Source: Patescibacteria group bacterium (GTDB lineage Bacteria > Patescibacteriota > Minisyncoccia > Minisyncoccales > JANBVM01). Taken from it: a stretch of DNA of 60,850 bases. The stretch is taken from positions 1-60,850 of the forward strand of contig JANBVM010000001.1 of NCBI GenBank assembly GCA_024239015.1, in the 5' to 3' direction. How positions within the stretch are numbered: the first letter of the stretch is position 1; the number at the start of each line of letters is the position of its first letter. The position numbers and the translations under genes are program-made. Below the pieces are notes generated by a model, which worked only from the letters and a program-made list of their open reading frames with translations, was not told the DNA's origin and made no database searches. This document shows positions 3,383 to 23,178 of the stretch, piece by piece.

Positions 3383-3383
3383 T

Positions 3384-4787: not shown

Positions 4788-4822
4788 AGGAATTCTTTTT
4801 TATTAATGATTTGATATTTCAA

Positions 4823-4960: not shown

Positions 4961-4984
4961 TTCGTGAAATAACCGTTTCACGAA
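4961..4984. repeat. complete 24-bp palindromic form of the island motif: TTCGTGAAA-TAACCG-TTTCACGAA
   Basis: Perfect 9-bp inverted arms flank a 6-bp asymmetric spacer. It contains form A (4961-4975, minus sense) and form B (4970-4984, plus sense) overlapping. It starts 138 nt to the right of the 4823 copy. It lies in the convergent spacer between stops at 4787 and 5040. Confidence 0.9.
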
Positions 4985-5039
4985 CTCACTTTCTTCTAGC
5001 TTGATATCTTCAAATCATTCTTAATCGTGAAAATTCTAT

Positions 5040-5882
5040 TTATTTATATCCATAAAAAACTTTCCAGAATTGGTCATCGAGAGGTATATTTCGAGGAAAA
5101 ATCATCATGCCATATCCTTTAAGTGTATAACCATCATGCCTATAAAACTTGTCTTCAATTAAAGTCATCAAATCATCACAATAGTCATTAAAAAATGCAC
5201 CTGGGCTTAAACCAAAATACTTCATAGCATATCTTCTCACCAAGTATGCTACGATGTCTGCTAATTGAACACCATTATGAATTATTGAATCAACAATAAA
5301 AGGTGTTTCTATAACTTGCTCGGGAAATTCATCCCAACCTTGTCCCGTACCATATTTTATGAAAGATTCTATTTCGTGACGTTTTTGTTCATCAAATTCG
5401 GGATCAACCGAATCCATTACTATCATTATATGCTGGTCTTTTTTTGGATGATTATCCATTACATAGCGGTTTAAACGTTCAATTAATAGTTTAAATGCCC
5501 AATTTGCTACTCCTACGTAATTTCCCTTCATAAAATGTTCCTTATGTACCACTATTGATACAATTTTTATAAACAATTTTGATAAAAAGGAATATATTTC
5601 CCGCCAGATACTTCTTAATTTATCGTCATCATCTCCAATAGACTTATAATATCCTTCCTTACGCGAAATTTCTTTCATGTGAAGTTCAAAATCTCCTGGT
5701 GGATCTTTCTGAAGTCCTTTATTTCTCACAAGATCCCAGATTTTACGTTTTAAATTTTTAATTTCCTGATGAATCCAATTCCAATATTGTTCATGAATAA
5801 TTAGAGCTGTTAAAACATAGAGTTTATTTTGTTTATTGTTAATATCCTTATTACCTGATTCATCAGCATAAGCGAAATACAT
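5040..5882 (-). CDS. DUF3800-family protein
   Basis: 280 aa. The N-terminal YADESGN and the C-terminal GVQLADIVAYLV are the two hallmark motifs of DUF3800. Confidence 0.6.
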   Translation of the reverse strand: MYFAYADESGNKDINNKQNKLYVLTALIIHEQYWNWIHQEIKNLKRKIWDLVRNKGLQKDPPGDFELHMKEISRKEGYYKSIGDDDDKLRSIWREIYSFLSKLFIKIVSIVVHKEHFMKGNYVGVANWAFKLLIERLNRYVMDNHPKKDQHIMIVMDSVDPEFDEQKRHEIESFIKYGTGQGWDEFPEQVIETPFIVDSIIHNGVQLADIVAYLVRRYAMKYFGLSPGAFFNDYCDDLMTLIEDKFYRHDGYTLKGYGMMIFPRNIPLDDQFWKVFYGYK

Positions 5883-6062
5883 TAAACTCTAACCACTTGA
5901 TTGTTATTTTAGTTTAATCTTTCACAATATTTATAGAATCTCCTTTCTTGGAGTTTTTATATAGGTTAAAATTTGGAAAGGAACAAGAATGAAAAAAGTT
6001 GATTTACTACCAAAATTTGCCAAAAATTTCGATAGGATTTTATAGACAGTGAAAGAATAGTT

Positions 6063-6740
6063 TTAAACACGAAGTCTTCTTCTATTTGGGTCTTTAATAC
6101 CAATATAACGTCGAATTCCAGAATGACCTCCTTCATTATATACATACCACAATCCCTCATCCCTTATTTTGTATTTTAAAGAGCAATTTTTACATTTTAT
6201 ATCGATATAATCTACTTTATCTTGGAAATCGATTTCTCCTTCACATTTAATGCATTTCATTTTTTCTTTTAATAGGAGCAATCTAAGACTTTCAATAAAG
6301 ATTAGATAGTTCTTGTTTATCATCGAATTAATTACATCCCAGGTTGAGTCCTTCAATGAATTAGAATTAAACACAGATATAGTTGAGCGTGAAGGTTTAT
6401 AGAATGAGATTTTTGGGTCAAAATATTGTCCGAGAGATCTTACAGATATGATATATATTTCTTTCTTTACTAAATCTGCTTTTATTACCTTGGCTGTTAG
6501 GTCAACTTGTTTAAAATACTTTTTGTTTTTAAACCAGTAAAGCATATAATCATAAGATTTTATTAACAATTTCTCAAATACTCGAAATAATATTAATGTT
6601 CCCAATGCTGATAGAATTGAGTATAAGACGATTAATGGATTAAGTGAATCTGTAAGAAAATTAAAAAGCCAAGTGAAAAGGCCTGAAAACAATGCACCTA
6701 TTACTACATATGTCAAATCATTTTTATCTGTTTTTTCCAT
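6063..6740 (-). CDS. hypothetical membrane protein with C-terminal zinc ribbon
   Basis: 225 aa. Two N-terminal hydrophobic helices (VVIGALFSGLFTWLFNFL, IVLYSILSALGTLILF). CIKC-x17-CKNC lies near the C-terminus. Confidence 0.5.
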   Translation of the reverse strand: MEKTDKNDLTYVVIGALFSGLFTWLFNFLTDSLNPLIVLYSILSALGTLILFRVFEKLLIKSYDYMLYWFKNKKYFKQVDLTAKVIKADLVKKEIYIISVRSLGQYFDPKISFYKPSRSTISVFNSNSLKDSTWDVINSMINKNYLIFIESLRLLLLKEKMKCIKCEGEIDFQDKVDYIDIKCKNCSLKYKIRDEGLWYVYNEGGHSGIRRYIGIKDPNRRRLRV

Positions 6741-6874
6741 CTTAATTCCTCAATAGTCCCTTTCTATTTTTACATTAATGTGTATAAAATTAAAATACTA
6801 TTATTAAGTGAATCTTTACCTTTTTTCATTATTTATTCTTTCAAATCCTTATTGTATTTTTATCAGCAAGATTT

Positions 6875-7186
6875 TCATAAAGGAATAATCTTAACACTAT
6901 GACTATACTGCTTTTTCATGTAGTTAGTTATTTCGAAATTTTTTTTTTGATATTCATCACTTAACTTAATTAAATGTCCTTGAGTGGGAATAATAGAAAT
7001 GAATGCTTTAATCTCGTCTTTAAAATCACTTACATTAATTTTATTCTGATTATCCACAAGCATTTTAAATGAATCAATTTGTTTTTGAATGAATTCAATA
7101 TTAGTTTCTTCTTTATTAATCTCTTTATACCAATGATACTTAACAAATGGAACTTTAATTTCTACATCGTGTCTTTTTTTTATCAT
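6875..7186 (-). CDS. hypothetical protein
   Basis: 103-aa ORF with ordinary composition. No motif recognised. Confidence 0.4.
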   Translation of the reverse strand: MIKKRHDVEIKVPFVKYHWYKEINKEETNIEFIQKQIDSFKMLVDNQNKINVSDFKDEIKAFISIIPTQGHLIKLSDEYQKKNFEITNYMKKQYSHSVKIIPL

Positions 7187-7613: not shown

Positions 7614-7928
7614 GTGAAAAAAATGCGTAAAAATATGGTTCGCTTGTCTGATATTGAGCATGCTCAACTTGAAAAGGCGAGAGAGGAACTTATGAAGAGG
7701 GGACTTGAAAATTTACCTGAAATTAAGCCTATCTGCCCAAGTTGTAGAAGTGAGTTGGATGATTTTAAAATTAACTCAAAATATATAAAATGTTCTAATT
7801 GCGGTTATGAAGAGAAGAGCACTTCACTTACTGCTATAGGAAGTTTTGCTTTTGGAGCAATTGTAGGATTAGGTGCCGCTGCACTAATTTACCTTTTATC
7901 TAAAGACAAGAAAGAATCACAAAAGTAG
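7614..7928 (+). CDS. small membrane-anchored zinc-ribbon protein with RHH-like N-terminus (copy 2)
   Basis: The ORF track starts at GTG 7614. By comparison with copy 1 (MRKNMVRLSDIEHAQLEKAREELMKRGL...), the ATG at 7623 is the likelier start. CPSC-x14-CSNC plus a C-terminal TM helix. Confidence 0.6.
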   Translation: MKKMRKNMVRLSDIEHAQLEKAREELMKRGLENLPEIKPICPSCRSELDDFKINSKYIKCSNCGYEEKSTSLTAIGSFAFGAIVGLGAAALIYLLSKDKKESQK

Positions 7929-8431
7929 TGAAATTTATGTTAAAGATATTTATCTCTCATAGCACAAGAGATTATAAATTAGTTACAGCATTAGAAGTAT
8001 ATTTAAAAATAAAAGGTATATTGACCTATATTGCTGAAAATGATTGTCAAGTTGGAAGATCCTTATCAAGTAAAATAATTGAAAATTTAGAGAAAAGTGA
8101 TTACTTTTTAGTTCTATATACTAATAAAGGAAAAGAATCAGATTACGTCAATCAAGAAATTGGATATTGGATAAAAGCTCGCGGTTTTACTAATCTTATC
8201 CCTTTAGTTGAAAAGGGAATAATACCAGAAGGCTTCTTATCTGGATGTGAATATTTTGAATTGGATCCTAAAAATCATAATATTGGTTTGGATAAAATTG
8301 TTGATTACTTAGTACAAAAGAAAGAGGAATATGAAATAGAATTATTTGGAGATAACATAGTTGTAGGTTTAGGACTCTTAGGGCTTACGGCTTTGATACT
8401 ATATGGAATATATGTAGTTGTGAAAGAATAG
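7928..8431 (+). CDS. TIR-like domain protein with C-terminal transmembrane anchor (copy 2)
   Basis: KIFISHSTRD and SDYFLVLYTNKGKESDYVNQEIGYW, with C-terminal LGLLGLTALILYGIY. The GTG start overlaps the upstream TAG by 1 nt. An ATG at 7937 is an alternative start. Confidence 0.6.
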   Translation: MKFMLKIFISHSTRDYKLVTALEVYLKIKGILTYIAENDCQVGRSLSSKIIENLEKSDYFLVLYTNKGKESDYVNQEIGYWIKARGFTNLIPLVEKGIIPEGFLSGCEYFELDPKNHNIGLDKIVDYLVQKKEEYEIELFGDNIVVGLGLLGLTALILYGIYVVVKE

Positions 8432-8645: not shown

Positions 8646-9836
8646 TTGGAAAAATTTGTATTGGACCCTGATTTAGCTACTTTAGTAGCTAATCTCAATG
8701 TATTTAATGTAATGAATGTGTTAAAAGTTGAGACTTCTGAAACCGTCTTCTCATCATTTTTGGCTTGGTTACTTAACCCGAGGGAAAATCATGGTCTCGG
8801 ATCTTATTTTCTAAAATATTTCTTGATGAGATGCGCGAAAATTTCAAATATTTTTACCGTCATTGACATTGATAAGTTAAATCTAAGTAATAGTATTGTT
8901 AGAACAGAAGAAAATTTTCATGGTACAAGAGCGGATATAACAATAAGAATTGACGATATAAATCTAATGAAATTTGGATGCTTAATTGAAAATAAAGTAA
9001 AATCCACAGAAGGCGAAGAGCAAACTAAGAATTATGTGAAATATTCAAAGATAAAATATCCAAAATATGATTTTATGTATGTTTATCTTACTCCTTTTGG
9101 TGAAGATGCCGATTCCAAAGAGTTTATATCAGTAAGTTATGAATCTGTTAAAGAATTATTAGTTCAAACAATTAACGCAAATAAAGATAATTTAAATGAA
9201 GAAATTTTGAATTTAATACAGCATTTTTTATATAATTTAGAGGAAAATATATTGAATAAAGGAAAAATTGTAGATTTATGTAAAATAATTTATGAAAAAC
9301 ATAGAGAAGCAATTGAGGCTATTATTGCGAATAAGCCACAGCATATTAAAATAATTGAAGAGGAAATCAAGGAATTACTTATTGATTTACCAGGTGAGTG
9401 GATGACGCACCCAACAAAGACCGATTGCTACGTATTTAAGAAACAATGGTTAGAAGATTTTCGTGAATTTAATATAGGAAATCTAGTTCCATTTTTCTTT
9501 TATAACGTACACTCTTGGAATAGCGAATCATTGTATATCGCGGTACAGTTATACATAGACAGAACAAAAGAATGGAAATTAGATGTTAGAGAATTATTTA
9601 CAGAAATTATTGAAAATAAAATAGACAAATCTGGTGTAAAGCCATTTCTCTATAATAAACAAAATATAGCAAAAAAAATCAAAGATATCGTAATAAAAGA
9701 GGGTTATGAAAATGACCAGGACTTGAAAGATGTAGCTTTGAAAATGAAGGATTTAATTGATGCAACAATCGGAGTTATTGATAACACCGTTGAAGAATTA
9801 AAAAATAAGCTCTCTAATTTGAAAAATGAAAAATAA
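8646..9836 (+). CDS. PD-(D/E)xK nuclease superfamily protein (PDDEXK_4/pfam14281-like)
   Basis: 396 aa. FSSFLAWLLNPRENHGLGSYFLKYFL, RADITIRID and LIENKVKSTEGEEQTKNY match the conserved N-terminal block and the D...E-x-K core of that family. Confidence 0.55.
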   Translation: MEKFVLDPDLATLVANLNVFNVMNVLKVETSETVFSSFLAWLLNPRENHGLGSYFLKYFLMRCAKISNIFTVIDIDKLNLSNSIVRTEENFHGTRADITIRIDDINLMKFGCLIENKVKSTEGEEQTKNYVKYSKIKYPKYDFMYVYLTPFGEDADSKEFISVSYESVKELLVQTINANKDNLNEEILNLIQHFLYNLEENILNKGKIVDLCKIIYEKHREAIEAIIANKPQHIKIIEEEIKELLIDLPGEWMTHPTKTDCYVFKKQWLEDFREFNIGNLVPFFFYNVHSWNSESLYIAVQLYIDRTKEWKLDVRELFTEIIENKIDKSGVKPFLYNKQNIAKKIKDIVIKEGYENDQDLKDVALKMKDLIDATIGVIDNTVEELKNKLSNLKNEK

Positions 9837-11097: not shown

Positions 11098-11383
11098 GGT
11101 ACTTAACTCATTTATCACGAGTAATTGTAAAGCTACTACTAATATCAAAGAACAAATTTGGGTGTCAGAAGTGTCAATTTCGTTCAAGGATGGGAAATTT
11201 TTCGCAATCAGATTAAAAAAAAAGTAAATTAATCCAATAGTACTTAATCACTAATCATTCTCAAGAGATTCAATATTATTCAAGCAAACATCAATTCTAT
11301 TATATATTTGTTTTTTCAAAGTTCCACTAAAACTAGGAGCAATTGTTAGAAGATCGAATAACTCCTCTTCTAATTTAATTATT

Positions 11384-11899
11384 TCATATTCTTTTCTTCG
11401 AGATTTCATTAGCTATTAACTCACATATTTTTTCTGAACTAATATTTGGACTTAATGTAATTCCAATTCCCTTTAAAATCATAAATTCAATCTTTCGGTC
11501 GTTTATCCATTTATAAGGATTTTTATCAAGTATCTGATCATAATAATTTATGAAGTTGTCCATCGAAATAATCCAACAAAATTCTTGCTTAAGAGCAAAA
11601 TTCAATATAAACTCGTCAGCTACCTTACTAGATTCTATAATTATTCCTTCTTCTAGCAATCCCCTAAATTCATTTTGTTTATCTATTTCATTGAGAAGAT
11701 TTGGGTCGCAAATGGGAAATGTCCTATGTTCAGAGAAACCCAATCCATTCAAATGATTTAACAATAATTTTATATCCCCAAATCTTGGATTTTTTGTTCG
11801 ATTATAACGATGTCGAGCCACATTATTTAAATCAATGCAAAGGGGAAATTGAATTAAAAATGGCAATTTTCGAAAAATACTTTCTAACATAAAGATCAA
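11384..11899 (-). CDS. NYN/Zc3h12a-like ribonuclease domain protein (putative)
   Basis: 171 aa. LCIDLNNVARHRY (IDGSNVA-like), PICDP and ADEFILNFALKQEFCWIISMDNFINY (D-x-F...IVSND-like) follow the Zc3h12a/NYN acidic-residue pattern. Confidence 0.45.
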   Translation of the reverse strand: MIFMLESIFRKLPFLIQFPLCIDLNNVARHRYNRTKNPRFGDIKLLLNHLNGLGFSEHRTFPICDPNLLNEIDKQNEFRGLLEEGIIIESSKVADEFILNFALKQEFCWIISMDNFINYYDQILDKNPYKWINDRKIEFMILKGIGITLSPNISSEKICELIANEISKKRI

Positions 11900-12026
11900 T
11901 AGTTAAGATTATATTTAAAACAATGTTTATTACATAACTATTTGACGTTCTCATGGATCAATTATAAAAAAATATACACATCCATTTTACATAAGCTTTT
12001 TAAATTGTATTCATCTATTTTTACTA

Positions 12027-15000
12027 ATGTCAATCGAAAAAGTTATTGGGAATATTATTGAAATTTTAAAAGAATTTTATGATTTAGATTTAATTCAAAT
12101 AGAAGCATTGAAAAATTCTGATGATAAATTAGTAATCTCTAAAGAAATTCTTAAAATCCTATTTAAGAATAATATATCTTCTGTAAGGAACGAAAAAAAG
12201 GATAAAAAGGAAGAAAAGAAAAAAATAAAGCGGTATACATCTCATTGTACTTTAAGACATAGATTTCCTAAATTTTTAGCGAAAGCAAAACAAGAGGAAT
12301 TCATAGAATTAGTTATAGAATTACTAGCAGATTGTCAACTGCATATAACTATAATAATTGGTGGTGGGAATACTAATTACTTCTATATTTCGGGTTTAGA
12401 ATCAATAATTAATCTTCTATTGAATATAGATTTAGATGGTATTTTTGAAAAAAAAAAAATTAAAGAGATGTTTGATAAGCCTTGTTTAATCTACTTTAAA
12501 GAAGGTTTTATGGAAAAAATCTTTGGTCCTGACGGATTACTAAAAAAAAAAGGATTTTCCATTCCAAAATTTATTGAAACTGTAAGTTTACAAAATGAGT
12601 TTTCTAGACAGAATGTATACAATTGGAAAAAAGGAGGTTATTTTCCTGTTAATTTCTTTAAAATTTTTATGATTCGATTTGAACAATTTAACGATTACTA
12701 TAGATATATAGATTATGTAAAGATTGGAAATTCAAATAAAATTTCAAAAGATTTATTAAATAAAATTTTTGAACAAATAAAAAATTTTGAAAAGTATATC
12801 AGTCATTCAGAGCTTAATGAGATTTTTAAACAATTCAATATTGTTCAAAGATTAAATATAATTGAAAAATATGATGATTTAATTAAGAATGTCCAAAATG
12901 AGAGAGAAATTAAATATTTGGATTATGTTGAGTTAATTAGATCTAAATTTGATATTTCAGACGATAGAACGTTAATAAAATCTGTTGAATTAGTAAATTT
13001 TAAGTCTTATAAAAGAGAAAAGATTGATTTTGAATCAGGAATTAATATATTATATGGCAAAAATGGCAGTGGAAAAACGTCATTGATCGAAGCCGTATTA
13101 TTTGCTTTATTACGATTGCATCCCCAACATTCTTTATATTATAATCCTGATCCTTCAGAATCTAGGAGTCCCGCTTATATTTTTTTACTAAACACTTGGC
13201 TTATACGAGCCGGGGAAGAGGTTTGTGAAGTTAAATTGACTTTAAAAATAAGGGAAAAGGAAATAATAATCGTCAGGAGTATTTCTAGAGATTTAACTCA
13301 AGAATTAAAAATATTTGATGGGGATGAAGAAATACCTCTTATATCCTTTAAAAAAGATCCAAATATTCCATCTTTGGTGATCAATTCATCCGAAATAAAA
13401 TTATTACATCTTGACAAAGAAGAGTGTCTTGAAGAGGCTCAAATTTATTCTGAAAATCAAGAACTTTATACTGAGTTTATATTCAGTGAATTTGAAAAAC
13501 GTGGACTATTTTTTGAAAAGAACGAAATTTTTTCCTCATTTTTTAATGAATACCACTTTTTCTGGGATTGGGATGAGATAAATAAAAGAAAGCGTAAAAT
13601 AAAAAATTACTATAGGAATAAATTCCGAATGAATTATTTATACAATTTAATCAAGGATCTAAAAAGAAAACGAATAAAATTACTGTGTAATCAAGCGAAG
13701 TTAATCTCCTCATTGAAAAAAAACTTGGATGATATGGAGCTCTATACTGATATTAATGAAAATAAATACTATAAAATTACTTCTGGAGAATGTATTAAAT
13801 GCAATGATATATGTGAAAGTGAAGATGGTGACAGATATCATTTTAACGAGTTACTGGAACAAGGTTATATTAGTAAAGATAATTTTTTTAAGACTTACTA
13901 TCCTGTTGAGACTCACCATGGAACAACTTGTCAGAAATGTGGAGCATACTATTGCGATTATCATCATCAATGGATGGATTATGATTGTGAAAAATGTGAT
14001 AATGACTTAGAAGCTAACTTATACAGAAGAAGAGAATTACATGTGTTACCTTCTCAGTTTTTGAAAATTCTTAAGTTTTCTTCCAATATCGATGAAAAGA
14101 TCTATGAAGAAATCTATAGAGACAATTATAACCAATTTAAAAGAATTGTAAAACAAGAGAAATATCATCCTTTATTAGTTGAGAATTTTGATCTAGAACT
14201 AGATAATCACTGTTTTAATGAAATTTCATTAATTTATGAACTTTTAATCCATCATTATACTTATATAATCGAATCATTAAAATTTCTATTATTAGGAGGA
14301 CAGGAACCGAATTTAAATTCACTTATAAAAAACATCGAAACGTTCAATAAGAGAGATAAGATAAATCCAAATATAGATTATATTAATCATATTGTATTGA
14401 TAATTATCTTTTATATCCAGAATTTAATCTCAAACAATTCAACAATTTTAATTAGGCTTGATTTATTGATAAAAGATACTATGAAAAGTTGTTATAACTC
14501 TTCATCTCAAATTCACCATTTATCATCTTCCTCTATCGAAACCTCAATGTATCGTATTCTTTATAATACAATAAATCTCTTGAAAAGTCCTTTATTTAGT
14601 CGCATTGATCACCTAATCGAAGCCCACCAAGGTGATATTGATGATTTTTTGCAAATTTATGAAAAACACTTTCACAATTCTCTCTCAAAAAGATATTATG
14701 GATTTATATATGGTGAAATTAAGATAGTGAAGACACCACAGAAAGATTATCATCCAAATATAATTTATTATGGCGAATATGATATTCAAAAATATCTTGA
14801 GACTGATTTTAATGTATTTGTTACCCAAGTTGAAAATGTAATGAAAATAATAAGTTGGGTAAAGAAAGTTTCAGAGAAATTGAAAAAAAATACTGAAGAA
14901 ATAGAAAATCTTGAAGATAGGATTAATTTTATCAAAGAACATTCTGCTCTAATTTATAAAAATGTGTTTATTAAATTTTTAAATGAGGAATTAAAGAGAT

Positions 15001-15380
15001 TGGCTCCTAAAATATTTAAGGAATCAAATAAATTTTATGGTTTTCTAGATGAAGATAGTTTCCATAAAATACAGTTTCAAAATGGAAAAATCGCACCCCT
15101 CAACATACTTAGCAATGGGGAAAAGAGCAAGTTCTTTTTAGCTCTCATTTGTATTTTAGCCAACCTCTCAAATAACAGCTTATTCTTTTTAATTGACGAA
15201 CCTAATGAATTATTGGATACTGAAAATATTAGTATCATCAAGGACTTTTTCTCACCACTTTTCAGGACTAAACAATTGATTCTTTGTACTTATATCAAGA
15301 AATATCTCGAAACAGAACCAACTCAGAAATTTGAGGTTAGAAAACATTTGGATGGGACATCATATATCGAAGAGAAATAA
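12027..15380 (+). CDS. Rad50/SMC/RecF-like ABC ATPase with ~320-aa N-terminal extension and central Cys cluster
   Basis: 1117 aa. VELVNFKSYKREKIDFESGINILYGKNGSGKTSLIEAVLFAL is the SMC_N head with Walker A. LSNGEKSKFFLALICILA is the signature motif and FFLIDEPNELLD is Walker B, both at the C-terminus. The long helical middle carries CIKC...CQKCGAYYCDYHH...CEKC. Confidence 0.7.
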   Translation: MSIEKVIGNIIEILKEFYDLDLIQIEALKNSDDKLVISKEILKILFKNNISSVRNEKKDKKEEKKKIKRYTSHCTLRHRFPKFLAKAKQEEFIELVIELLADCQLHITIIIGGGNTNYFYISGLESIINLLLNIDLDGIFEKKKIKEMFDKPCLIYFKEGFMEKIFGPDGLLKKKGFSIPKFIETVSLQNEFSRQNVYNWKKGGYFPVNFFKIFMIRFEQFNDYYRYIDYVKIGNSNKISKDLLNKIFEQIKNFEKYISHSELNEIFKQFNIVQRLNIIEKYDDLIKNVQNEREIKYLDYVELIRSKFDISDDRTLIKSVELVNFKSYKREKIDFESGINILYGKNGSGKTSLIEAVLFALLRLHPQHSLYYNPDPSESRSPAYIFLLNTWLIRAGEEVCEVKLTLKIREKEIIIVRSISRDLTQELKIFDGDEEIPLISFKKDPNIPSLVINSSEIKLLHLDKEECLEEAQIYSENQELYTEFIFSEFEKRGLFFEKNEIFSSFFNEYHFFWDWDEINKRKRKIKNYYRNKFRMNYLYNLIKDLKRKRIKLLCNQAKLISSLKKNLDDMELYTDINENKYYKITSGECIKCNDICESEDGDRYHFNELLEQGYISKDNFFKTYYPVETHHGTTCQKCGAYYCDYHHQWMDYDCEKCDNDLEANLYRRRELHVLPSQFLKILKFSSNIDEKIYEEIYRDNYNQFKRIVKQEKYHPLLVENFDLELDNHCFNEISLIYELLIHHYTYIIESLKFLLLGGQEPNLNSLIKNIETFNKRDKINPNIDYINHIVLIIIFYIQNLISNNSTILIRLDLLIKDTMKSCYNSSSQIHHLSSSSIETSMYRILYNTINLLKSPLFSRIDHLIEAHQGDIDDFLQIYEKHFHNSLSKRYYGFIYGEIKIVKTPQKDYHPNIIYYGEYDIQKYLETDFNVFVTQVENVMKIISWVKKVSEKLKKNTEEIENLEDRINFIKEHSALIYKNVFIKFLNEELKRLAPKIFKESNKFYGFLDEDSFHKIQFQNGKIAPLNILSNGEKSKFFLALICILANLSNNSLFFLIDEPNELLDTENISIIKDFFSPLFRTKQLILCTYIKKYLETEPTQKFEVRKHLDGTSYIEEK

Positions 15381-15488
15381 CACATTAGATAATAGATAAA
15401 ATATTTACACTAAACTCTGCAGCGTCTAAAAAGTTTTTTAATAATTTGATATTTAAAGTATGAGATATTATGAATAGAGTGGAGATAT

Positions 15489-15833
15489 ATGATAAATTTA
15501 GATATTTTAGAAAATTTAAAAGCAATTAAACAAAGAATACTAGCCTTATTAATAACAAATGATTTTATAACTGATTCTTCTTCAATAGAAGATGAACGGT
15601 CAATGAACTGGAATTTTTACCAAGAAAATAAAGAATTCATAGATATAATTGATGGAATACTAGAAAACATGAAAGTATTAATCATACCTTCAGTAGAAAA
15701 TAAATCACAAATTCTCAAAATAATCAATTGGATACAAAATACCAACTATGATAATATTTCATTAGAAGAGATTCAGGATTATTTAGAAGAACGAACTATT
15801 GATAAGTTAGAATTAGAAAATCGTTTTCAGTAG
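15489..15833 (+). CDS. hypothetical acidic protein
   Basis: 114 aa. GTGGAG lies about 6 nt before the ATG. No motif recognised. Confidence 0.45.
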   Translation: MINLDILENLKAIKQRILALLITNDFITDSSSIEDERSMNWNFYQENKEFIDIIDGILENMKVLIIPSVENKSQILKIINWIQNTNYDNISLEEIQDYLEERTIDKLELENRFQ

Positions 15834-16425: not shown

Positions 16426-17691
16426 ATGAAGGATAAGAAAATTATTAGTTTAATCTCGTTAATCTTTTTTTCAACTGTTTTGATAAATATAACTCCGACA
16501 CGAGCGATAATTAAAGACCAAACAATCTCAACCATAGCTGAAAAAGATACCTACGTTAATACTGATGAAGCTTTATCTAACTTTGGTGGACAAGATTATG
16601 CGTTGGGGGGTTTTTATTTTGGAGGAGACATTGTAGAAGCATATTTCTTCTTTAACTTTAGCGATAAACCAAGTACTTATACCAAAGCCGAAATTTCATT
16701 AGATTTTTGGAGCGTTTCTCAAACTATGAATGTCTCAATCTATCTAATTGAAGAGGAATGGGATGAATATTCGATGACATGGATCAATAAGCCATCAAAG
16801 GGAGCTGAAATTACCTCTATAATAATCACTCAATCTGATATCTATACTATTAATGTTACAAATTTTATTGCTGGTAGAAATAACCTATCTATTTGTGTTT
16901 ATATAAAAGTTGAAAATTACGTGAATGACTATTTTTATATAACAACGAGAGAAGGTTTTTATTCTTGGGCTCCTGAGGATGCACCTCAATTAATATGGAC
17001 TTATCCTGGAAATGTAGAAATTACTGTTACAAATCCTACATCTTCATCCAATTGGCTGGAATTAAATATTTACACGATACAATGGACCTCAACAGGTGAT
17101 ATTGACAATGTAAAAATTGAGTTATATAAAGGTGCTTTATTTGTTGAAGAAATAACATCAGTGCTAGGGTATACTATCAACGATGGCACATATGACTTTT
17201 ATGTATCTATTGCTGAGAATTATGATGGTACAGATTATAGAATAAAAATCTCAGATTTTGATGACCCAAATGTTTATGGCTATAGTGGTTACTTTTCGAT
17301 AAATGTAAGGAGCGGTACTATGACAATTACTAGTCCAACTAGTTCTTCTTCATGGCAAGCTGGAACTATAAAATCTATTACTTGGACATCAACAGGAAAT
17401 TTATTAAATGTAGACATTGAAATATACAAAGGAGCAGTATTGATGTATTACATTTATGACGTATCAAATTTAGGGATTAAATTATGGGATATTGATGCAG
17501 CTATTGAGATAGGGACTGATTGGAGAATTAAGATTTCCAACTCAGATAATTCAGCTCAATATGACTGGAGTGATTATTTTGAAATATATAACGCTAGAGA
17601 TGGTGGAGCAATATCTGGTTATGATTTTTATATAATTTTAATGATATCAATAATTTCCCTTACGATAATAACTCGGAAAATAAAAAAATAA
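16426..17691 (+). CDS. secreted/anchored surface protein: DNRLRE/CBM96-like N-domain plus two Kre9/KNH-like Ser/Thr-rich repeats and a C-terminal TM anchor
   Basis: 421 aa. Signal-like N-terminus (IISLISLIFFSTVLINI). AEKDTYVNTDEALSNFGG is a typical DNRLRE-domain start. Tandem units TNPTSSSNWLELNIYTIQWTSTGDIDNVKIELYKG and TSPTSSSSWQAGTIKSITWTSTGNLLNVDIEIYKG are about 99 aa apart. Hydrophobic C-terminus. An RBS-like GGGTGG precedes the start. Confidence 0.6.
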   Translation: MKDKKIISLISLIFFSTVLINITPTRAIIKDQTISTIAEKDTYVNTDEALSNFGGQDYALGGFYFGGDIVEAYFFFNFSDKPSTYTKAEISLDFWSVSQTMNVSIYLIEEEWDEYSMTWINKPSKGAEITSIIITQSDIYTINVTNFIAGRNNLSICVYIKVENYVNDYFYITTREGFYSWAPEDAPQLIWTYPGNVEITVTNPTSSSNWLELNIYTIQWTSTGDIDNVKIELYKGALFVEEITSVLGYTINDGTYDFYVSIAENYDGTDYRIKISDFDDPNVYGYSGYFSINVRSGTMTITSPTSSSSWQAGTIKSITWTSTGNLLNVDIEIYKGAVLMYYIYDVSNLGIKLWDIDAAIEIGTDWRIKISNSDNSAQYDWSDYFEIYNARDGGAISGYDFYIILMISIISLTIITRKIKK

Positions 17692-17700
17692 TTTTTTTTT
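17692..17700 (+). terminator. oligo-T run (T9) directly after the stop codon
   Basis: TAA at 17689-17691 is followed by TTTTTTTTT, an archaeal-type intrinsic termination signal. Confidence 0.4.
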
Positions 17701-17871
17701 CTATTGACTCAATTATTATAATTTTTCTAAATCTATTTATAATTAAGTACATGTAGATCTTATTCAGAGGGGCGTTTCTAGGGAAAATACTTACGACTTA
17801 TAAATCTTGAAATAGATCTAATCTGATAAATAAATTATTTTAACAGAGAAGACTGTTGAATAATTTTATAC

Positions 17872-19434
17872 TCAGTTAAGATTTATGAAAACGTCAACAG
17901 TAAAATGGTCTGATCCGGTCAGGAAATGGGCAGTATCTCCAGTGGTAGAGTTGATTATATTGGAAGATAAAAATTGATTGACATAAATAAAATCAATGCG
18001 AGAATTATATATCCCTGGATAAGTAACACCCCAATCAGTTGGATTTAAAGTTCGATGAACGTCAGTCCAACTATGAATTGCAGATGAATAAACACTATAA
18101 TCACCACCCGTATCGGGATTACTATAAGGGGAAACCATCATACTTAAAGGTCCATAACCGAGTCCGCTCTGAGGATTAAGACCCCAATCTTCAGGAGAAA
18201 AGGAGTTTAAATCACCCAAATAAACTAAAGATACATTTCCTAAATTATCCATATAGTTGATAATACCTTCTTGTTCCAATTCTCTTCTTTGTTCATTTAC
18301 AGCCTCAGGCATGGCCTTTAAGTGGGATCCAATAATATGTATTGGTGTCCCACTTACGTTTACTTCTACATCATAGAAATCATGAGTAACATCATAACTA
18401 GTAGAATTATCGAGTAGAACATGAGTTATTTGATTATAGTCAATAACAGGATAACGACTCATTATTGCCGCTCCATCAGTAGACCTGGATATTCCTTGAG
18501 TACAATATCCAATATAGGGGTCCTCACCAGCAAAATAGGTGTTAAACTCACTTACATATTGGTTTAACTTTAAATCGCTATTATCATCCCAAGTTCCAGT
18601 TTCTATGAACATTATGATATCTGCATTCTCCTCTTTTACTACGGTTTTCCAATCAGGATAAGCAAGGTCTTCACCACTTTCCTTTATGTTAAATGCCATC
18701 AACTTGAAGATTTCAGATGTTTCAAGAATAATTCCTGAATTGTTTACAGTCACGGATATTGTATCAGAGCCATTATTACCAGAAGGATCGATAGCTTCAC
18801 AGAGAATAGTATGAGAACCATTTATTTCTTGTGTTGTATTCCAAGAATAGACATTTGTACCTGACCTTAATATATCATTAATATAAATTGCGTAAGAACT
18901 GATTCCATTGGCATCAGTAGCACTCATAGTGATTGTTACGATATCCGAAACTGTCGAATTTGCCACAGGAGAAATAATAGTAACAATTGGTGGCGTAGTA
19001 TCTGCTCCTCCGCTATTATTTACAATTATTGATATGGAATTTGAACCAGTTTTACCAAAAGGATCGGTAGCTTCACAGAGAATTGTGTGAATCCCATCAC
19101 TTTCTTGGGTTGTGTCCCATAAGTAAGATTTTGTTCCTGATCTATAAACCCCATCAATATAAATTGCGTAAGAACTGATTCCATTAGCATCAGTAGCATC
19201 CATATTAATTAATATTGTACCCGAAACTGTTGAATCATCGATCGGAGATAAGATTATAACATTTGGGAACGTTGTATCTTGTTCTTGAGGAGTATTAGCT
19301 GGAGTATTTACTATTATAAACAATAAAACAATTGAGGTTGTGCTAAAAATTATAAACAACGTAATAATAGCCAAATATTTCCTATTTTCAATTAATCTCA
19401 TTTTAATTTTAATAATGTTGGTTGACTTCTCCAA
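17872..19434 (-). CDS. membrane-anchored/secreted endonuclease-exonuclease-phosphatase (EEP) family protein with two Ig-like repeats
   Basis: 520 aa. N-terminal TM helix (LAIITLFIIFSTTSIVLLFII). Two 92-aa repeats (…SPIDDSTVSGTILINMDATDANGISSYAIYIDG… and …SPVANSTVSDIVTITMSATDANGISSYAIYIND…). The C-terminal EEP motifs are FNIKESGE, ADIIMFIETG, GSHLKA, LGDLNSF, RIDFIYV and GSDHF. Confidence 0.7.
   Translation of the reverse strand: MEKSTNIIKIKMRLIENRKYLAIITLFIIFSTTSIVLLFIIVNTPANTPQEQDTTFPNVIILSPIDDSTVSGTILINMDATDANGISSYAIYIDGVYRSGTKSYLWDTTQESDGIHTILCEATDPFGKTGSNSISIIVNNSGGADTTPPIVTIISPVANSTVSDIVTITMSATDANGISSYAIYINDILRSGTNVYSWNTTQEINGSHTILCEAIDPSGNNGSDTISVTVNNSGIILETSEIFKLMAFNIKESGEDLAYPDWKTVVKEENADIIMFIETGTWDDNSDLKLNQYVSEFNTYFAGEDPYIGYCTQGISRSTDGAAIMSRYPVIDYNQITHVLLDNSTSYDVTHDFYDVEVNVSGTPIHIIGSHLKAMPEAVNEQRRELEQEGIINYMDNLGNVSLVYLGDLNSFSPEDWGLNPQSGLGYGPLSMMVSPYSNPDTGGDYSVYSSAIHSWTDVHRTLNPTDWGVTYPGIYNSRIDFIYVNQFLSSNIINSTTGDTAHFLTGSDHFTVDVFINLN
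18727..19278 (-). repeat. tandem 276-nt coding repeat (two Ig-like domains)
   Basis: AAATTGCGTAAGAACTGATTCCATT[G/A]GCATCAGTAGCA recurs at 18885 and 19161, exactly 276 nt (92 codons) apart. Confidence 0.8.
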
Positions 19435-21756: not shown

Positions 21757-23178
21757 TTAAACTTTTTTTTGTCTTAATTCCTTCGGAGGATTTTTCATGT
21801 TCCATTGACTCCAAGCGTATCCTCGAACATTTTCCCATCCATACTTTCTCATAAGTTCCAATGTAACTTCCTTTAGGTCAGCATTCTCTTTTACTTCTTC
21901 AAGGGCTATTATCTTATTCATTTGTGTCCATTTATTCCCCCCTTTTTTCAGATTACTAACTCTTGTGTTTACATTTGAAGATTTACCCACATACCATTTT
22001 CCATGTTCAAGTCGAAGGATAAAAACAGCTGTCGATCTTGTCCGATCCTCGTTTTCTTTTAAATATTCTAAACCCCCATCTTGACTTCTAATGCACTCCT
22101 GTATTTTTTTCGGGATATAAGTATTATAAGAATCACTAAAACTTGTTCCCCTTACACATCTCCAGCCATAATTTGTTATATACCGAACCATAACTTCGGT
22201 AAGATCTCCATCTTCGATAATCTCTTGAACTTTAATTACTTTACTATCTCTTGTCCATATGTTTCCCTTTCCTTCTCTATGTGCTGCGATAGTGGATGTT
22301 GTATTTTTAGATCTTCCAATCCACCACTTATTATTTGCTAATTCTAATACAAAAATAGGTCTTCTCTTTCTCGAAGTCCTTTTTTCGGCTGTAGCAATTT
22401 TTAATATATTATCATTTGTAATTTTGATTGGAGTTTCTTTCTGATCAAGTACCATTTTTTTATTTTGACTCTTTACTGGTGTTAGGGTACCCTTCACATT
22501 TTTGCTGATTCTTATTGGGTATGTAAATTTACAATCAGGGTAACCTCCGCACCCTAAAAAGATTCCACGGCTTCCAGTTCGTTCATGCATAAGGCTTCCA
22601 CAAACTGGACATAGAATATTTCTAGCGCTTTCAATATTAAAAGAAAATCTACAATTCGGAAAACCATTACAACCAAAAAATTTCCCATTTTTACCAATAT
22701 AAATAGCTAATTTCTTATTACAATTAGGACATACTTTAGGGGGAGTTAATTTTTGATTTTGTTCCTTAGTAGTTAATGTTTCCTTAATTTCATTGAAATT
22801 TAGATTTCTTTGTAAATCATTATCAGGTCGGCTTGCTCCTATTTCTCTTTTCTTAAAATCCGGATTCAATTCTAATTTTATATCGAAGAAAGAGTTGAAG
22901 TCGGAATCATCTAAAAATCCATCCTCCTCATAAATTTCAAGAATTTTTCTTAAATCTTCATTTTCTTCTACGTGCTCTTTTAAAAAACTTAAATCTGTTT
23001 TATCTAGAATATATTTTCCCTCTTCTTCAGCTTTCTCTAATTCTTTCTCTAATGATTCATATTGTTTTTCAGTTAAGAATTTATTTTTAGTAAAAAAGCT
23101 GAAGAGATCTTCAAAAAACGGATTATATTTAGCGAAAACTTCTAGCCACTGTTCTTCTTCTTCGCTCAGTTCCTTCAT
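21757..23178 (-). CDS. multidomain protein: novel N-domain + two topoisomerase-type C4 zinc fingers + two GIY-YIG-like domains
   Basis: 473 aa. CPNCNKKLAIYIGKNGKFFGCNGFPNCRF and CPVCGSLMHERTGSRGIFLGCGGYPDCKF fit zf-C4_Topoisom. IFVLELANNKWWIGRSKN...YGWRCVRGTSFS and VFILRLEHGKWYVGKSSNVNTRV...YGWENVRGYAWS are tandem GIY-YIG-superfamily-like modules. The N-terminal ~105 aa are homologous to 50256..50846. Confidence 0.55.
   Translation of the reverse strand: MKELSEEEEQWLEVFAKYNPFFEDLFSFFTKNKFLTEKQYESLEKELEKAEEEGKYILDKTDLSFLKEHVEENEDLRKILEIYEEDGFLDDSDFNSFFDIKLELNPDFKKREIGASRPDNDLQRNLNFNEIKETLTTKEQNQKLTPPKVCPNCNKKLAIYIGKNGKFFGCNGFPNCRFSFNIESARNILCPVCGSLMHERTGSRGIFLGCGGYPDCKFTYPIRISKNVKGTLTPVKSQNKKMVLDQKETPIKITNDNILKIATAEKRTSRKRRPIFVLELANNKWWIGRSKNTTSTIAAHREGKGNIWTRDSKVIKVQEIIEDGDLTEVMVRYITNYGWRCVRGTSFSDSYNTYIPKKIQECIRSQDGGLEYLKENEDRTRSTAVFILRLEHGKWYVGKSSNVNTRVSNLKKGGNKWTQMNKIIALEEVKENADLKEVTLELMRKYGWENVRGYAWSQWNMKNPPKELRQKKV

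Follow-up and report, generated by a model that had tools for sequence, protein, structure and literature searches.

A Rad50/SMC-like ABC ATPase paired with a divergently encoded NYN-family nuclease: a putative immune module of Asgard archaea

The DNA stretch analyzed in this study (the window; 60,850 nucleotides) carries a gene for a 1117-aa ATPase with a long N-terminal extension, adjacent to a divergently transcribed gene for a small nuclease-like protein. What kind of ATPase is this, which of its neighbors belong to the same system, and what could they do together? The main features are listed in Table 1, with the three ORFs lying where a sequence-only reading of this DNA had placed them. 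That reading described a giant orphan ATPase forming a trio with its neighbors in a defense setting; the ATPase class, the N-terminal extension, the Cys-rich module, and the NYN neighbor were borne out, whereas the trio as a unit and the orphan status were not.

Table 1. Coordinates of the features of the ATPase-NYN locus in the window
Feature	Residues	Coordinates	Strand	Remarks
NYN (Zc3h12a-like, PIN-like fold) nuclease gene		11384..11899	-	171 aa; predicted effector
Intergenic region, divergent genes on either side		11900..12026		127 nt, AT-rich; sequence reading
Rad50/SMC-clade ABC ATPase gene		12027..15380	+	1117 aa; predicted sensor/transducer
N-terminal extension	1-316	12027..12974	+	Family-specific alpha/beta domain
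Walker A, GKNGSGKT	344-351	13056..13079	+	Motif reading
Apex insertion	about 578-850	13758..14576	+	Gap mapping of alignment A1
Cys/His module	589-657	13791..13997	+	C-x2-C ... C-x2-C-x4-C-x2-H ... C-x2-C
ABC signature through Walker B, catalytic Glu, D-loop		15108..15200	+	Motif reading
H-loop position	1087-1089	15285-15293	+	Reads C-T-Y, no histidine
Acidic ORF		15489..15833	+	114 aa; 108 nt downstream of ATPase gene

The ATPase family

Profile comparisons assign the 1117-aa protein to the Rad50/SMC clade of ABC ATPases. Pfam SMC_N covers residues 317-1097 (E 5.6e-20) and AAA_23 covers residues 320-555. The head is split, as had been claimed, with the signature LSNGE (residues 1028-1032) and the Walker B motif FFLIDE (residues 1052-1057, followed by the catalytic E1058) located at the C-terminus. 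N340, G344, G349, and K350 are near-invariant across the family. The family profile finds its best PDB matches in archaeal Rad50 heads (1.5e-21) and the next in SMC heads, in agreement with the Rad50/SMC-like character proposed earlier. In all 12 members with the Walker B motif IDEPNE, the H-loop reads Q-x-[IVL]-[IL]-x-T-[FY], so that Tyr or Phe takes the place of the His, and the profile alignment with ABC proteins stops at the Thr just before the canonical His. This replacement suggests that the ATPase could be a slow-hydrolysing, switch-like enzyme and not a motor. As to a supposed long coiled coil between the heads, a crude heptad scan flagged only residues 727-755 and 924-981.

An exhaustive search, 1.84 billion in size, yielded 12 ATPase cluster representatives at E<1e-30, the full-length relatives (P0019-P0030) being found at 1e-123 to 1e-29. 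Members of the family share about 30% identity across their full length, and thus the description of the protein as an orphan was too strong. All relatives come from low-GC marine-sediment archaea (GC of the loci about 25-32%), and one of them, annotated as Rad50, is from Candidatus Lokiarchaeum GC14_75. C-terminal fusions to HerA, TPR, and HhH occur in the family. No relative was found by a motif search of 185,579 GTDB species representatives, nor among the 2.9 million viral contigs of IMG/VR. The family is small, rare, and patchy.

The N-terminal extension is kept in 15 relatives (alignment A2). It has a net charge of +7, an alpha-beta-beta-alpha-beta-beta-alpha order in its first half, and an HTH-like motif, SRQNVYNWKKGGYFP, at residues 193-207. 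The sequence-only reading had recognized nothing in it, and indeed no credible match to its 316 residues was found among Pfam, PHROG, and PDB sequences, the sole sequence match being a sub-threshold one to RRM_1 (E 0.009, 16 bits). The AF2 model is confident (pLDDT 79.8, pTM 0.72) and weakly similar to LAGLIDADG/WhiA scaffolds: the top Foldseek lists for PDB and BFVD consist mostly of LAGLIDADG endonucleases, PI-SceI, and WhiA, all weak matches (E 0.01-0.4, local probability up to 0.99, ~110 residues), with nothing at E<=0.001 in either database. Alignment to I-CreI by hhalign found nothing, and the family shows no conservation where LAGLIDADG enzymes have their catalytic acids. We predict that the extension is a DNA-binding or sensor module.

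The apex insertion is mostly missing from the shorter members P0024, P0026, P0027, and P0035 (alignment A1). As noted earlier, it holds a Cys-rich cluster instead of a simple CxxC hook, consisting of C589, C592, C596, C635, C638, C643, H646, H647, C654, and C657. The eight-ligand module is present in 9 of the 13 full-length members, the window's protein counted; the pattern is aligned in P0019-P0023, P0025, P0028, and P0030, and was found again in loci L004, L006, L007, and L008. The number of ligands, eight, suggests that two zinc ions could be bound by one and the same chain, arranged as a cross-brace or treble clef, and that the module does not form a Rad50-type hook shared between chains.

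The NYN partner and the gene neighborhood

The NYN nuclease family includes the animal antiviral RNase Regnase-1. The 171-aa upstream neighbor, described earlier as NYN/Zc3h12a-like, is a divergent Zc3h12a-type member of this family, visible at profile level only. Searched by itself, it gives no Pfam match even at E<=10 and no significant BLASTP match to MCPIP1, with shuffle z-scores of 2.0-2.8; the assignment comes from the family profile of its orthologs. PF11977 is matched by six of eight family members (best E 1.6e-13), the profile finds PRORP2 (1.4e-4) and ZC3H12C (2.4e-3) in PDB, and hhalign pairs it with the NYN domain of MCPIP1 at a probability of 91.6% (E 8e-7, 121 columns). Residues D23, D95, and D114 are aligned with D141, D226, and D244 of MCPIP1, whereas two of the five active-site Asp residues, D225 and D248, correspond to A94 and N118 (active-site residues of MCPIP1 as given in PMC5499597). 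D65 is invariant in the family. The window protein is the most divergent one within its close ortholog group, with the SND motif reading SMD; it is devoid of the C-terminal tail (...GELDLF) conserved in the orthologs and is the sole group member missing PF11977. The MAGs behind the NYN homologs found in GTDB carry the label Heimdallarchaeota or Promethearchaeota, apart from one whose only label is "uncultured archaeon".

Both the public gene call and the homolog alignment favor an ATG at 11890 as the more likely start of the NYN gene. This yields a protein of 168 aa and a divergent gap of 136 nt, compared to 127 nt counted from the TTG start. The gap presumably houses both promoters; a sigma-70-type scan of 11900..12026 found 44 sites against 42 expected, archaeal promoters being outside the scope of the tool.

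In all nine distinct loci having upstream sequence, the ATPase gene is preceded by a divergently oriented gene of the NYN family, and the ATPases encoded there are only 26-54% identical. Hence the neighbors do not vary freely on this side. The ORFs 3' of the ATPase gene, in contrast, vary from locus to locus. The 114-aa ORF (D+E = 22, K+R = 11) is probably a real gene, since the public gene caller also calls it; family searches (Pfam, PADLOC, and NCBIfam among them) gave no match, and no homolog was found in 17 related loci (L003-L019). The ORF is thus no conserved part of the system, and the proposed trio is reduced to a pair.

The relatives have further constant partners on the NYN side, overlooked earlier: HerA-type ATPases with PD-(D/E)XK or NurA-like nucleases. 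A HerA-like gene follows the NYN gene in L004 and L006, accompanied in L004 by a NurA-like gene (weak match, E 1e-3); a PD-(D/E)XK-HerA fusion is encoded on the NYN side in L005, L007, and L009; and one ATPase relative is itself fused to HerA. Such a third gene stands beside the closest NYN orthologs in seven of seven loci with enough sequence (L005, L007, L009, L016-L019). It is missing from the window locus, where a search for a remnant found none. We take the window copy to be a minimal form; the relatives also have a HerA-type translocase, either in fusion with a PD-(D/E)XK or NurA-like nuclease or linked to one. Also overlooked earlier was a wHTH-TPR protein that stands in for the ATPase in some Asgard MAGs (L017-L019). 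Judged by a flanking gene of ~82% identity, L005, L013, L017, and L019 occupy the same chromosomal site. The copy in L013 is decaying, its ATPase being split and its NYN gene truncated.

The pair sits in a defense island. The island in the window contains TIR, PDC-S26 PD-(D/E)XK, HD, DUF3800, NERD-UvrD, nSTAND3, SNF2 with a DUF1156 methylase, Mrr, and HD-CE/HATPase genes; most related loci are short contigs, which cover little of the surroundings of the relatives. A tRNA search of the window found none, and no integrase or transposase was seen near the pair, where the Pfam content of the neighbors is defense-like. None of the PADLOC, Pfam, and NCBIfam models places the pair in a named system, in line with the earlier remark that the domain combination fits none of Lamassu, Wadjet, and the OLD/Gabija-like families: the PADLOC matches of the ATPase mostly concern the Walker A/head region, no PADLOC model of any kind matches the NYN proteins, and the NCBIfam scores of the ATPase are far under the cut-offs. 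No description of the pair was found in the searchable literature.

Proposed function and its alternatives

With the domains identified, the family found to be conserved, the two genes found to be linked, and their island characterized, a function can be proposed. The company of defense genes in this one island and the architecture lead us to read the locus as a two-gene anti-virus or anti-plasmid conflict module of Asgard archaea, with the ABC ATPase as a putative sensor and the nuclease as a putative effector, and give this reading about an even chance (probability roughly 0.5). The pair probably represents an undescribed ATP-controlled nuclease immune module. In the mechanism that we infer, the heads of the ATPase would dimerise on ATP binding. 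The N-terminal domain, possibly a basic alpha/beta scaffold akin to catalytically dead LAGLIDADG/WhiA modules with an HTH-like motif, and the two-zinc apex insertion would sense some feature of nucleic acids, for instance foreign DNA, free DNA ends, or unusual structures. Nucleotide-dependent head engagement would then recruit or release, within a physical ATPase-NYN complex, the small Mg2+-dependent nuclease, which would cut nucleic acid, most likely RNA, so that transcripts are destroyed or growth stops; alternatively, its substrate could be ssDNA or flap DNA. The variable modular architecture (fusions, accessory nucleases, the ATPase swap, decay in L013) is typical of immune systems, HEC-03 and Menshen (see below) offer precedents, and the lack of relatives in IMG/VR speaks against a viral gene pair. 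The lack of the third gene in the window, the divergence of the window's NYN protein, the A94/N118 replacements, the sparse heptad signal for a coiled coil, and the weakness of the LAGLIDADG resemblance speak against this reading.

The HerA/NurA company of the relatives also fits DNA repair. The pair could belong to a repair or recombination machine, with the ATPase as a Rad50 paralog and the NYN protein replacing Mre11 in end resection together with HerA and NurA or PD-(D/E)XK nucleases, on the model of the archaeal Mre11-Rad50-HerA-NurA operon. A link of Mre11-Rad50 with HerA-NurA is established (PMC2288612, PMC3300031), and the affinity of the heads to archaeal Rad50, the annotation of the Lokiarchaeum member, and the HerA linkages and fusions described above would agree with this role. 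However, the ATPase reaches 36-48 bits with the NCBIfam Rad50 equivalogs, more than 10-fold below their cut-offs (700-1087), and no Mre11- or Metallophos-like protein was found among 26 scanned ORFs, out of the 42 window ORFs of at least 100 aa, with all immediate neighbors of the pair included. It would be unusual for a working Rad50 to lack the H-loop His, and against such a role also speaks a family that is rare, patchy, and absent from the GTDB representatives searched, with a highly variable architecture where a TPR protein can replace the ATPase. Besides, the window neighbors are TIR, PD-(D/E)XK, nSTAND, and restriction-modification genes, with no HerA and no NurA. We therefore consider a repair role unlikely.

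Slightly less probable still is that the window copy is a non-functional, drifting remnant of a three- or four-gene system (NYN, HerA-nuclease, and sensor) that has lost its HerA-nuclease gene. The copy may be reduced or decaying, given the absence of the third gene and the divergence of its NYN protein; the missing tail and PF11977 match, and the clear decay of L013, point in the same direction. On the other hand, both window genes are intact full-length ORFs even though a genome GC of 27% makes stop codons likely to appear. The ATPase still has all its motifs and the NYN protein its three core Asp residues, two independent assemblies yield identical copies of both genes, and two-gene systems of an ABC ATPase and a PIN protein work elsewhere (HEC-03). 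Finally, it is very improbable that the pair is a selfish or mobile-element module, in which a homing-endonuclease-derived DNA-binding ATPase and a toxin-like nuclease serve element maintenance or addiction: the weak LAGLIDADG likeness, the occurrence of AAA_21/AbiEii-type ABC ATPases in toxin-antitoxin-like systems (a weak Pfam match here), and the patchy distribution would suit it, but the IMG/VR viral contigs hold no relatives, no integrase, transposase, or tRNA was seen among the defense-like neighbors, and the catalytic-acid positions are not conserved.

Comparison with known systems

With Zc3h12a/Regnase-1, N4BP1, KHNYN, and PRORP, the NYN protein shares the PF11977/PRORP PIN-like group and three aligned active-site Asp residues, whereas its family is stand-alone (170-190 aa) and has no CCCH zinc finger, KH, or PPR, and the equivalents of MCPIP1 D225 and D248 are not kept. 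Septu PtuA, PARIS AriA, Gabija GajA, and DndD/PbeC give head-level PADLOC matches to the ATPase, those to PtuA, AriA, and GajA covering little beyond the Walker A region, but the ATPase has no HNH, TOPRIM, or DndE partner. The best PADLOC score belongs to mad3 of MADS (1.5e-23; 2.6e-31 over the entire 374-position model for the L005 relative), and HerA-like partners of the relatives match mad8 and HerA models. However, the score with the NCBIfam MAD3 equivalog is 21 bits, far from its cut-off of 420, and the pair has no adjacent methyltransferase or other mad genes.

Like Mre11-Rad50/HerA-NurA, the system pairs a nuclease with an ATPase whose heads are nearest to archaeal Rad50, and among its relatives HerA and NurA-like genes occur as linked genes or fusion partners. 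It differs by the lack of the Mre11 phosphoesterase and of a single CxxC hook centred in a long coiled coil, by the lost H-loop His, and by a distribution that is patchy, not universal. In Lamassu, an SMC/Rad50-like split-head ATPase (LmuB) is likewise coupled to a separate nuclease effector, and one LmuB model (PDLC03859) aligns over both heads (residues 317-1095, E 1e-9). Still, its score of 36 bits is under that of the generic SMC_N (72 bits), LmuB has neither the extra N-terminal domain nor the eight-ligand zinc module, and the window locus has no LmuA- or LmuC-like partner. We know of no NYN effector among the listed LmuA types.

Menshen combines the sensor NsnA, the ABC ATPase NsnB, and NsnC, an inactive PIN with a nuclease, its sensor domains being highly polymorphic (PMC12065111). 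The logic of sensor, ABC-ATPase transducer, and PIN-fold-containing effector is similar, but the locus described here has no ParB-DUF262 protein, the domain that may act as its sensor is part of the ATPase itself, and its PIN-like protein keeps catalytic Asp residues. The closest in design is HEC-03, where an ABC ATPase (HEC-03A) and a small PIN nuclease (HEC-03B) are both needed for phage defense (bioRxiv 10.1101/2024.01.29.577857). HEC-03 is bacterial, uses a VapC-type PIN instead of a Zc3h12a-type NYN nuclease, and has no long N-terminal domain or zinc module; the HEC-group PADLOC matches of the window ATPase are to HEC-01A and HEC-02A, mostly in the head region, with no HEC-03A among the best 25. 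Thus the pair is best read as a putative new, Asgard-restricted variant of the defense design in which an ABC-ATPase sensor controls a nuclease effector.

A candidate immunity pair of Asgard archaea

We estimate at roughly one half the probability that the 1117-aa ATPase and the divergent NYN nuclease form an Asgard-restricted, unnamed variant of immunity in which an ABC ATPase acts as sensor and a nuclease as effector, the window holding a minimal form of two genes. The function is inferred from domains, linkage and genomic context. The observations of the sequence-only reading stand, and its interpretation holds in part. The three ORFs it described, an ATPase flanked by an NYN-type RNase and a small acidic protein, were found again in the window at the coordinates listed in the table, which also collects the other features considered. 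The GC content of the window is about 27% throughout, and no tRNA or Rfam RNA was found in it.

Coordinates of the ORFs, defence-island members and related operons (positions are those of the window unless a related locus is named)
Feature	Position	Strand	E-value or basis
TIR	1536-2048	-	
HD	3384-4787		
DUF3800	5040-5882	-	
TIR	7928-8431	+	
PDC-S26 PD-(D/E)XK	8646-9836		8.9e-55
NYN ORF	11384-11899	-	ORF scan
ATPase ORF, 1117 aa	12027-15380	+	ORF scan
114-aa ORF	15489-15833	+	ORF scan
CBM96/Kre9_KNH-like (421 aa) and Big_7 + Exo_endo_phos (509-520 aa) proteins; predicted secreted/surface	16426-19434		
Zn_ribbon_Top1 protein	21757-23178	-	
NERD-UvrD helicase	23353-25125		
N6_N4 DNA methylase	26707-27999	-	
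nSTAND3 NTPase	32174-34462	-	
SNF2 helicase with NOV_C (1134 aa), DUF1156 DNA methylase (882 aa), 947-aa protein without Pfam match	37111-46033	+, co-directional	
Mrr	46098-47003		
ADP-ribosylglycohydrolase	47090-48079	-	
HD-CE + HATPase_c_3	50866-53562	-	
NYN + PD-(D/E)XK-HerA operon with divergent putative wHTH + TPR protein replacing the ABC ATPase	L017 2613-8482; L018 6703-12917; L019 6615-12923		
Flanking protein, ~650 aa, ~82% identity between loci	L017 640-2586; L019 3544-5517; L005 7609-8394; L013 10364-11110		

The split ABC head proposed for the ATPase is borne out by motif positions, domain coverage and profile matches. The Walker A motif GKNGSGKT (aa 344-351) lies in the N-lobe, and the signature LSNGE (1028-1032), the Walker B motif FFLIDE (1052-1057, followed by E1058) and the D-loop lie in the C-lobe. 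Pfam SMC_N covers aa 317-1097 (E 5.6e-20), and the best PDB matches of the family profile are archaeal Rad50 heads (M. jannaschii, both lobes, 1.5e-21), followed by SMC heads. The curated models of Rad50, SMC, RecF, RecN and MukB score far under their cut-offs and cover the Walker A region alone. By these searches the family is placed within the Rad50/SMC clade, yet appears to be no ortholog of Rad50, SMC, RecF, RecN or MukB.

A word-indexed search of 5.8 billion proteins retrieved only the ATPase itself and Walker-A-level matches, and the same index queried with the family profile returned the ATPase alone. The family was recovered only when 1.84 billion cluster representatives were searched exhaustively with HMMER, yielding 12 proteins with E<1e-30. 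The full-length relatives have 929-1483 aa and about 30% identity to the query; for instance, P0020 is aligned to query residues 1-1108. Some family members carry C-terminal fusions, namely HerA (P0028), TPR (P0027, P0030) or HhH (P0024). Residues ~960-1721 of another member, P0035 (1721 aa), contain motifs resembling those of N6-adenine DNA methyltransferases (ILDPACNDGS, and KPPW for NPPW), a reading that was supported neither by Pfam (E<=0.001) nor by the PDB sequence search.

Q-x-[IVL]-[IL]-x-T-[FY] is the H-loop sequence of the 12 members with an IDEPNE Walker B motif, and against canonical ABC proteins the profile alignment stops at the Thr just before the usual His. Since [FY] follows the aligned Thr, the switch histidine is replaced by Tyr or Phe. 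Judged by ABC ATPases in general, this replacement suggests that the ATPase hydrolyses slowly and behaves like a switch.

A repair machine built on a Rad50 paralog is the alternative closest to these head matches, and one family member, KKK44243.1 from Candidatus Lokiarchaeum sp. GC14_75, carries Rad50 in its annotation. We consider it rather unlikely: no gene for Mre11 (a calcineurin-like phosphoesterase) is adjacent in the window or among the ORFs examined in the related loci, and the neighbours of the pair are the 114-aa ORF, a 208-aa ORF, a PDDEXK_4 protein and a TIR protein. Were the function repair, a Rad50 paralog would have a set of partners independent of Mre11, which would likewise be new.

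The window NYN protein alone has no Pfam match at E<=10 and no homolog by word index, its single-sequence AlphaFold2 model is uninformative (pLDDT 44), and BLASTP against the human MCPIP1 NYN domain (reference sequence 100% identical to PDB 3V32) is not significant, with alignment-score shuffles giving z = 2.0-2.8 only. At the profile level, the suggestion that this 171-aa neighbour is a Zc3h12a-type NYN nuclease is upheld, and we regard the predicted assignment as solid. Eight members were aligned, the window protein, five close orthologs and two distant relatives; six of them match PF11977 RNase_Zc3h12a (best E 1.6e-13). The family profile retrieves PRORP2 (1.4e-4) and ZC3H12C/B (about 2e-3) from PDB, and hhalign to MCPIP1 gives 91.6% probability (E 8e-7, 121 columns).

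The active-site aspartates of MCPIP1 are D141, D225, D226, D244 and D248 (PMC5499597). Three of the five are kept in the window protein, where D23, D95 and D114 align with D141, D226 and D244; A94 and N118 stand at D225 and D248, and residue 118 varies among E, D, N and Q in the orthologs. D65 is a further family invariant. The orthologs open with M-[CT]-L-E, in favour of a true start at the ATG at 11890, which gives the 168 aa of the public gene call. The same call contains a 52-aa ORF overlapping the NYN 3' end (window ~11251-11409, minus strand; L001 9225-9383). In a 2017 classification, prokaryotic Zc3h12a-like proteins are listed as of unknown function.

Gene linkage, partner exchange and distribution

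An NYN-family gene lies divergently upstream of the ATPase in all nine distinct loci having upstream sequence (the window, L004, L005, L006, L007, L008, L009, L012 and L013), and the ATPases of these loci are just 26-54% identical. Clear NYN orthologs (phmmer 1e-35 to 1e-44), directly and divergently upstream, were identified in L005, L007, L008, L009 and L012; the copy in L013 is truncated, and those in L004 and L006 belong to a more distant subfamily. The related ATPase loci were collected with the short alignment of the C-terminal head, the full ATPase and N-extension alignments being too variable for such a scan. Of the three-gene unit initially proposed, the linkage of ATPase and nuclease is retained and the 114-aa ORF is not. 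The latter encodes an acidic protein (22 D+E vs 11 K+R) with no family match and no homolog in any related locus, and the genes 3' of the ATPase vary by locus; thus the conserved unit is the pair rather than the trio.

Several relatives contain additional genes on the NYN side. In L005, L007 and L009, a PD-(D/E)XK domain (PDDEXK_1, 3.8e-10) at the N-terminus and a HerA-like ATPase (PADLOC HerA 1.9e-12, mad8 3e-14) at the C-terminus are joined in one protein of ~770 aa; the PDB sequence search returned nothing for the 771-aa PD-(D/E)XK-HerA protein. The NYN side of L004 holds a HerA-like (DUF87) gene and, after it, a gene with weak resemblance to NurA (E 1e-3); a fragment homologous to the HerA-like gene is present in L006. 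In L017-L019 (GTDB Asgard MAGs), a 950-1070-aa protein takes the position of the ABC ATPase, divergent from the NYN and PD-(D/E)XK-HerA operon. The TPR tails of ATPase fusions (L008/P0030) are homologous to the C-terminal TPR region of this protein, whose N-terminus we read as putative wHTH-like repeats. It looks as if the sensors, ABC ATPase or TPR protein, are interchangeable on a constant module of NYN and HerA-linked nuclease. These modular relatives would provide a good system for studying sensor exchange in archaeal immunity.

By tblastn, the relatives' HerA and nuclease genes have no remnant anywhere in the window. As a separate observation, the NYN orthologs of L005, L007, L009, L012 and L016-L019 end in ...ITTL-x-ILN-x-IE-x3-GELDLF, a tail missing from the window protein. 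The tail may be a contact for the PD-(D/E)XK-HerA partner; the window is without both. Alternatively, the window copy may have been reduced from a larger system or be in decay, which we judge improbable; its ATPase and NYN ORFs are both present. L013 (3483-7067) looks like a decaying copy: its ATPase is split into ORFs 4289-6259 and 6447-7067, and its NYN protein is without the N-terminal strand bearing the first catalytic Asp.

A ~650-aa protein, for which the PDB sequence search gave no match, is encoded within a few kb of the system in four loci. Since this flanking gene recurs, the ATPase and TPR versions seem to share one chromosomal site, which suggests a common insertion site. It is very improbable that the pair is a module of a selfish element: viral origin was rejected, as the IMG/VR viral contigs contain no relative of the ATPase or of the NYN protein.

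One long, dense defence island, spanning 1536-60220, surrounds the pair. The 37111-46033 trio presumably resembles DISARM-class or related methylase-helicase defence operons. In L010, a homolog of the window HD-CE/HATPase_c_3 protein (2476-4116) directly adjoins an ATPase-family fragment, so that the ATPase family and this gene co-occur in a second contig. The predicted secreted or surface proteins at 16426-19434 part the pair from the next defence genes and are odd content for a defence island. The promoter and terminator scan of the window was uninformative in this AT-rich archaeal DNA.

The family appears to be confined to Asgard archaea. A scan of GTDB genomes with the NYN alignment found four loci, three of them in MAGs labelled Heimdallarchaeota or Promethearchaeota and the fourth in one labelled just "uncultured archaeon"; with the ATPase motif, none of 185,579 GTDB species representatives yielded a relative. 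The GC content of the related loci is 25-32%, with two weak outliers up to 37%.

The N-extension and the zinc module

The N-extension (aa 1-316), as the sequence-only reading had remarked, resembles nothing familiar: it has no credible Pfam, PHROG or PDB sequence match, the sole match being a sub-threshold RRM_1 (E 0.009). Because relatives align from query residue 1 on, it is a conserved and defining part of the family. Y118, S126, F182, P207 and G234 are invariant in the N-extension alignment, and F166-G167-x-x-G170 is nearly so. The AlphaFold2 model built from a 16-sequence alignment (pLDDT 79.8, pTM 0.72) has the order alpha-beta-beta-alpha-beta-beta-alpha at aa 34-133 and a helix-turn-helix-like unit at aa 179-217, at the conserved SRQ-x-VY-x-WK-x3-YFP. 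The net charge of the region is +7.

Foldseek searches of PDB and a viral library with this model gave nothing at E<=0.001. Both lists are headed, weakly (E 0.01-0.4), by LAGLIDADG homing endonucleases and their derivatives. I-AabMI, I-OnuI, I-LtrI and I-Vdi141I are among the top PDB matches, which also include PI-SceI (109 columns, rmsd 3.6 Å, probability 0.99) and WhiA (105 columns, rmsd 4.0 Å, probability 0.98). The viral matches are LAGLIDADG proteins, ribonucleotide reductases and DNA/RNA polymerases; these reductases and polymerases are frequent intein hosts. Pfam found no LAGLIDADG match in the 16 N-extensions and no family common to them, hhalign to I-CreI gave 0.1% probability, and the candidate LAGLIDADG catalytic positions are not conserved acids in the alignment. 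The model offers a lead, rather than a result, that the N-extension could be a catalytically dead LAGLIDADG/WhiA-like DNA-binding scaffold.

The Cys/His cluster reported between the heads is present (C589, C592, C596, C635, C638, C643, H646, H647, C654 and C657). The pattern C-x2-C ... C-x2-C-x4-C-x2-[CH] ... C-x2-C is aligned in nine of 13 full-length members, including that of the window, and its ligands recur in the metagenome loci L004, L006, L007 and L008. The eight Cys/His ligands at aa 589-657 lie about 110 aa past the N-head and about 300 aa ahead of the C-head. In Rad50, two chains share a single CxxC hook, at the tip of a long, symmetrical coiled coil; here there is instead an eight-ligand module, absent in four members. 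Since the eight ligands sit in one chain, we infer two intramolecular zinc sites per chain, probably of the cross-brace or treble-clef type.

Most of the block equivalent to window aa ~578-850 is likewise missing from the members without the module (P0024, P0026, P0027 and P0035), which suggests that the predicted zinc module, with the ~190 aa after it, is inserted where a short pair of arms ends. The whole inter-head region has only about 480 aa and no Pfam match to SMC_hinge (PF06470) at E<=0.1. Residues 481-585 are almost free of Pro and Gly. In a crude heptad scan, only aa 727-755 and 924-981 scored above the 99th percentile of shuffles; a coiled coil is not established.

Significance and comparison with known systems

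Modules of an ABC ATPase and a nuclease form one of the major classes of prokaryotic immunity (examples are Lamassu, PARIS, Gabija, Septu and HEC-03), and to our knowledge nearly all that is known of them is bacterial. The combination described here is new: a Rad50-like head lacking the H-loop histidine, a conserved N-terminal domain modelled as homing-endonuclease-like, a predicted two-zinc apex module and an NYN effector. A more specific and doubtful proposal is an Asgard immune system in which a Rad50-like ATPase, with a captured dead homing-endonuclease scaffold as nucleic-acid sensor, would gate a stand-alone Zc3h12a-type NYN effector. Regnase-1, N4BP1 and KHNYN are animal antiviral RNases of the same nuclease family. 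As this effector family is used by animals against viral RNA, the pair is a testable link to the question of which parts of eukaryotic immunity go back to Asgard archaea. Should the Asgard NYN clade turn out to be sister to its eukaryotic counterpart, the RNase arm would join the eukaryotic innate-immunity modules with an archaeal root.

No named system claims the pair, in agreement with the initial impression that it fits none: PADLOC and NCBIfam models assign neither gene, and PADLOC has no match for the NYN proteins (window and orthologs) or for the 114-aa protein. The best PADLOC match of the ATPase is mad3, covering the head alone in the window protein; the further matches, PtuA, AriA, GajA, AbiLi, DndD, PbeC and HEC-01A/02A, lie mostly in the head region, with AriA and HEC-01A reaching into the N-lobe and one match each of PbeC and DndD on the C-head.

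Individual systems were rejected on the following grounds. A Rad50 ortholog would not score 36-48 bits against NCBIfam cut-offs of 700-1087, with only the Walker A region covered; SMC proper was rejected for the missing match to an SMC hinge and the short inter-head region. One LmuB model (PDLC03859) extends across both heads (E 1e-9, 36 bits), more weakly than the generic SMC_N, and the other LmuB models match the head only; Lamassu was rejected, as PADLOC found no LmuA or LmuC alongside (171-aa and 114-aa proteins, NYN orthologs). MADS was rejected at 21 bits against the NCBIfam MAD3 cut-off of 420, with no adjacent methyltransferase or other mad genes. For PARIS, Gabija and Septu, membership was rejected because the AriA, GajA and PtuA matches are mostly over the head region. 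Dnd/Pbe was rejected as well: PbeC and DndD match head segments at E 1e-6 to 1e-7, and there is no adjacent DndE-like gene.

In the literature, we found no account of an NYN protein paired with an SMC-like ATPase in archaea; a mention in the ABC-ATPase classification of Krishnan et al. 2020 is possible. Rad50, SMC, Lamassu, HerA and NYN all go unmentioned in the main text of the Asgard defence survey. No HEC-03 model is among the 25 best PADLOC matches of the ATPase, and the NYN proteins are unmatched; HEC-03, an ABC ATPase with a PIN nuclease, is the closest system by design only. Its defence needs both the ATPase and the PIN genes (bioRxiv 10.1101/2024.01.29.577857), and Menshen follows a comparable logic of sensor, ABC protein and PIN effector (PMC12065111). 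By parts, the closest system is Mre11-Rad50 with HerA-NurA.
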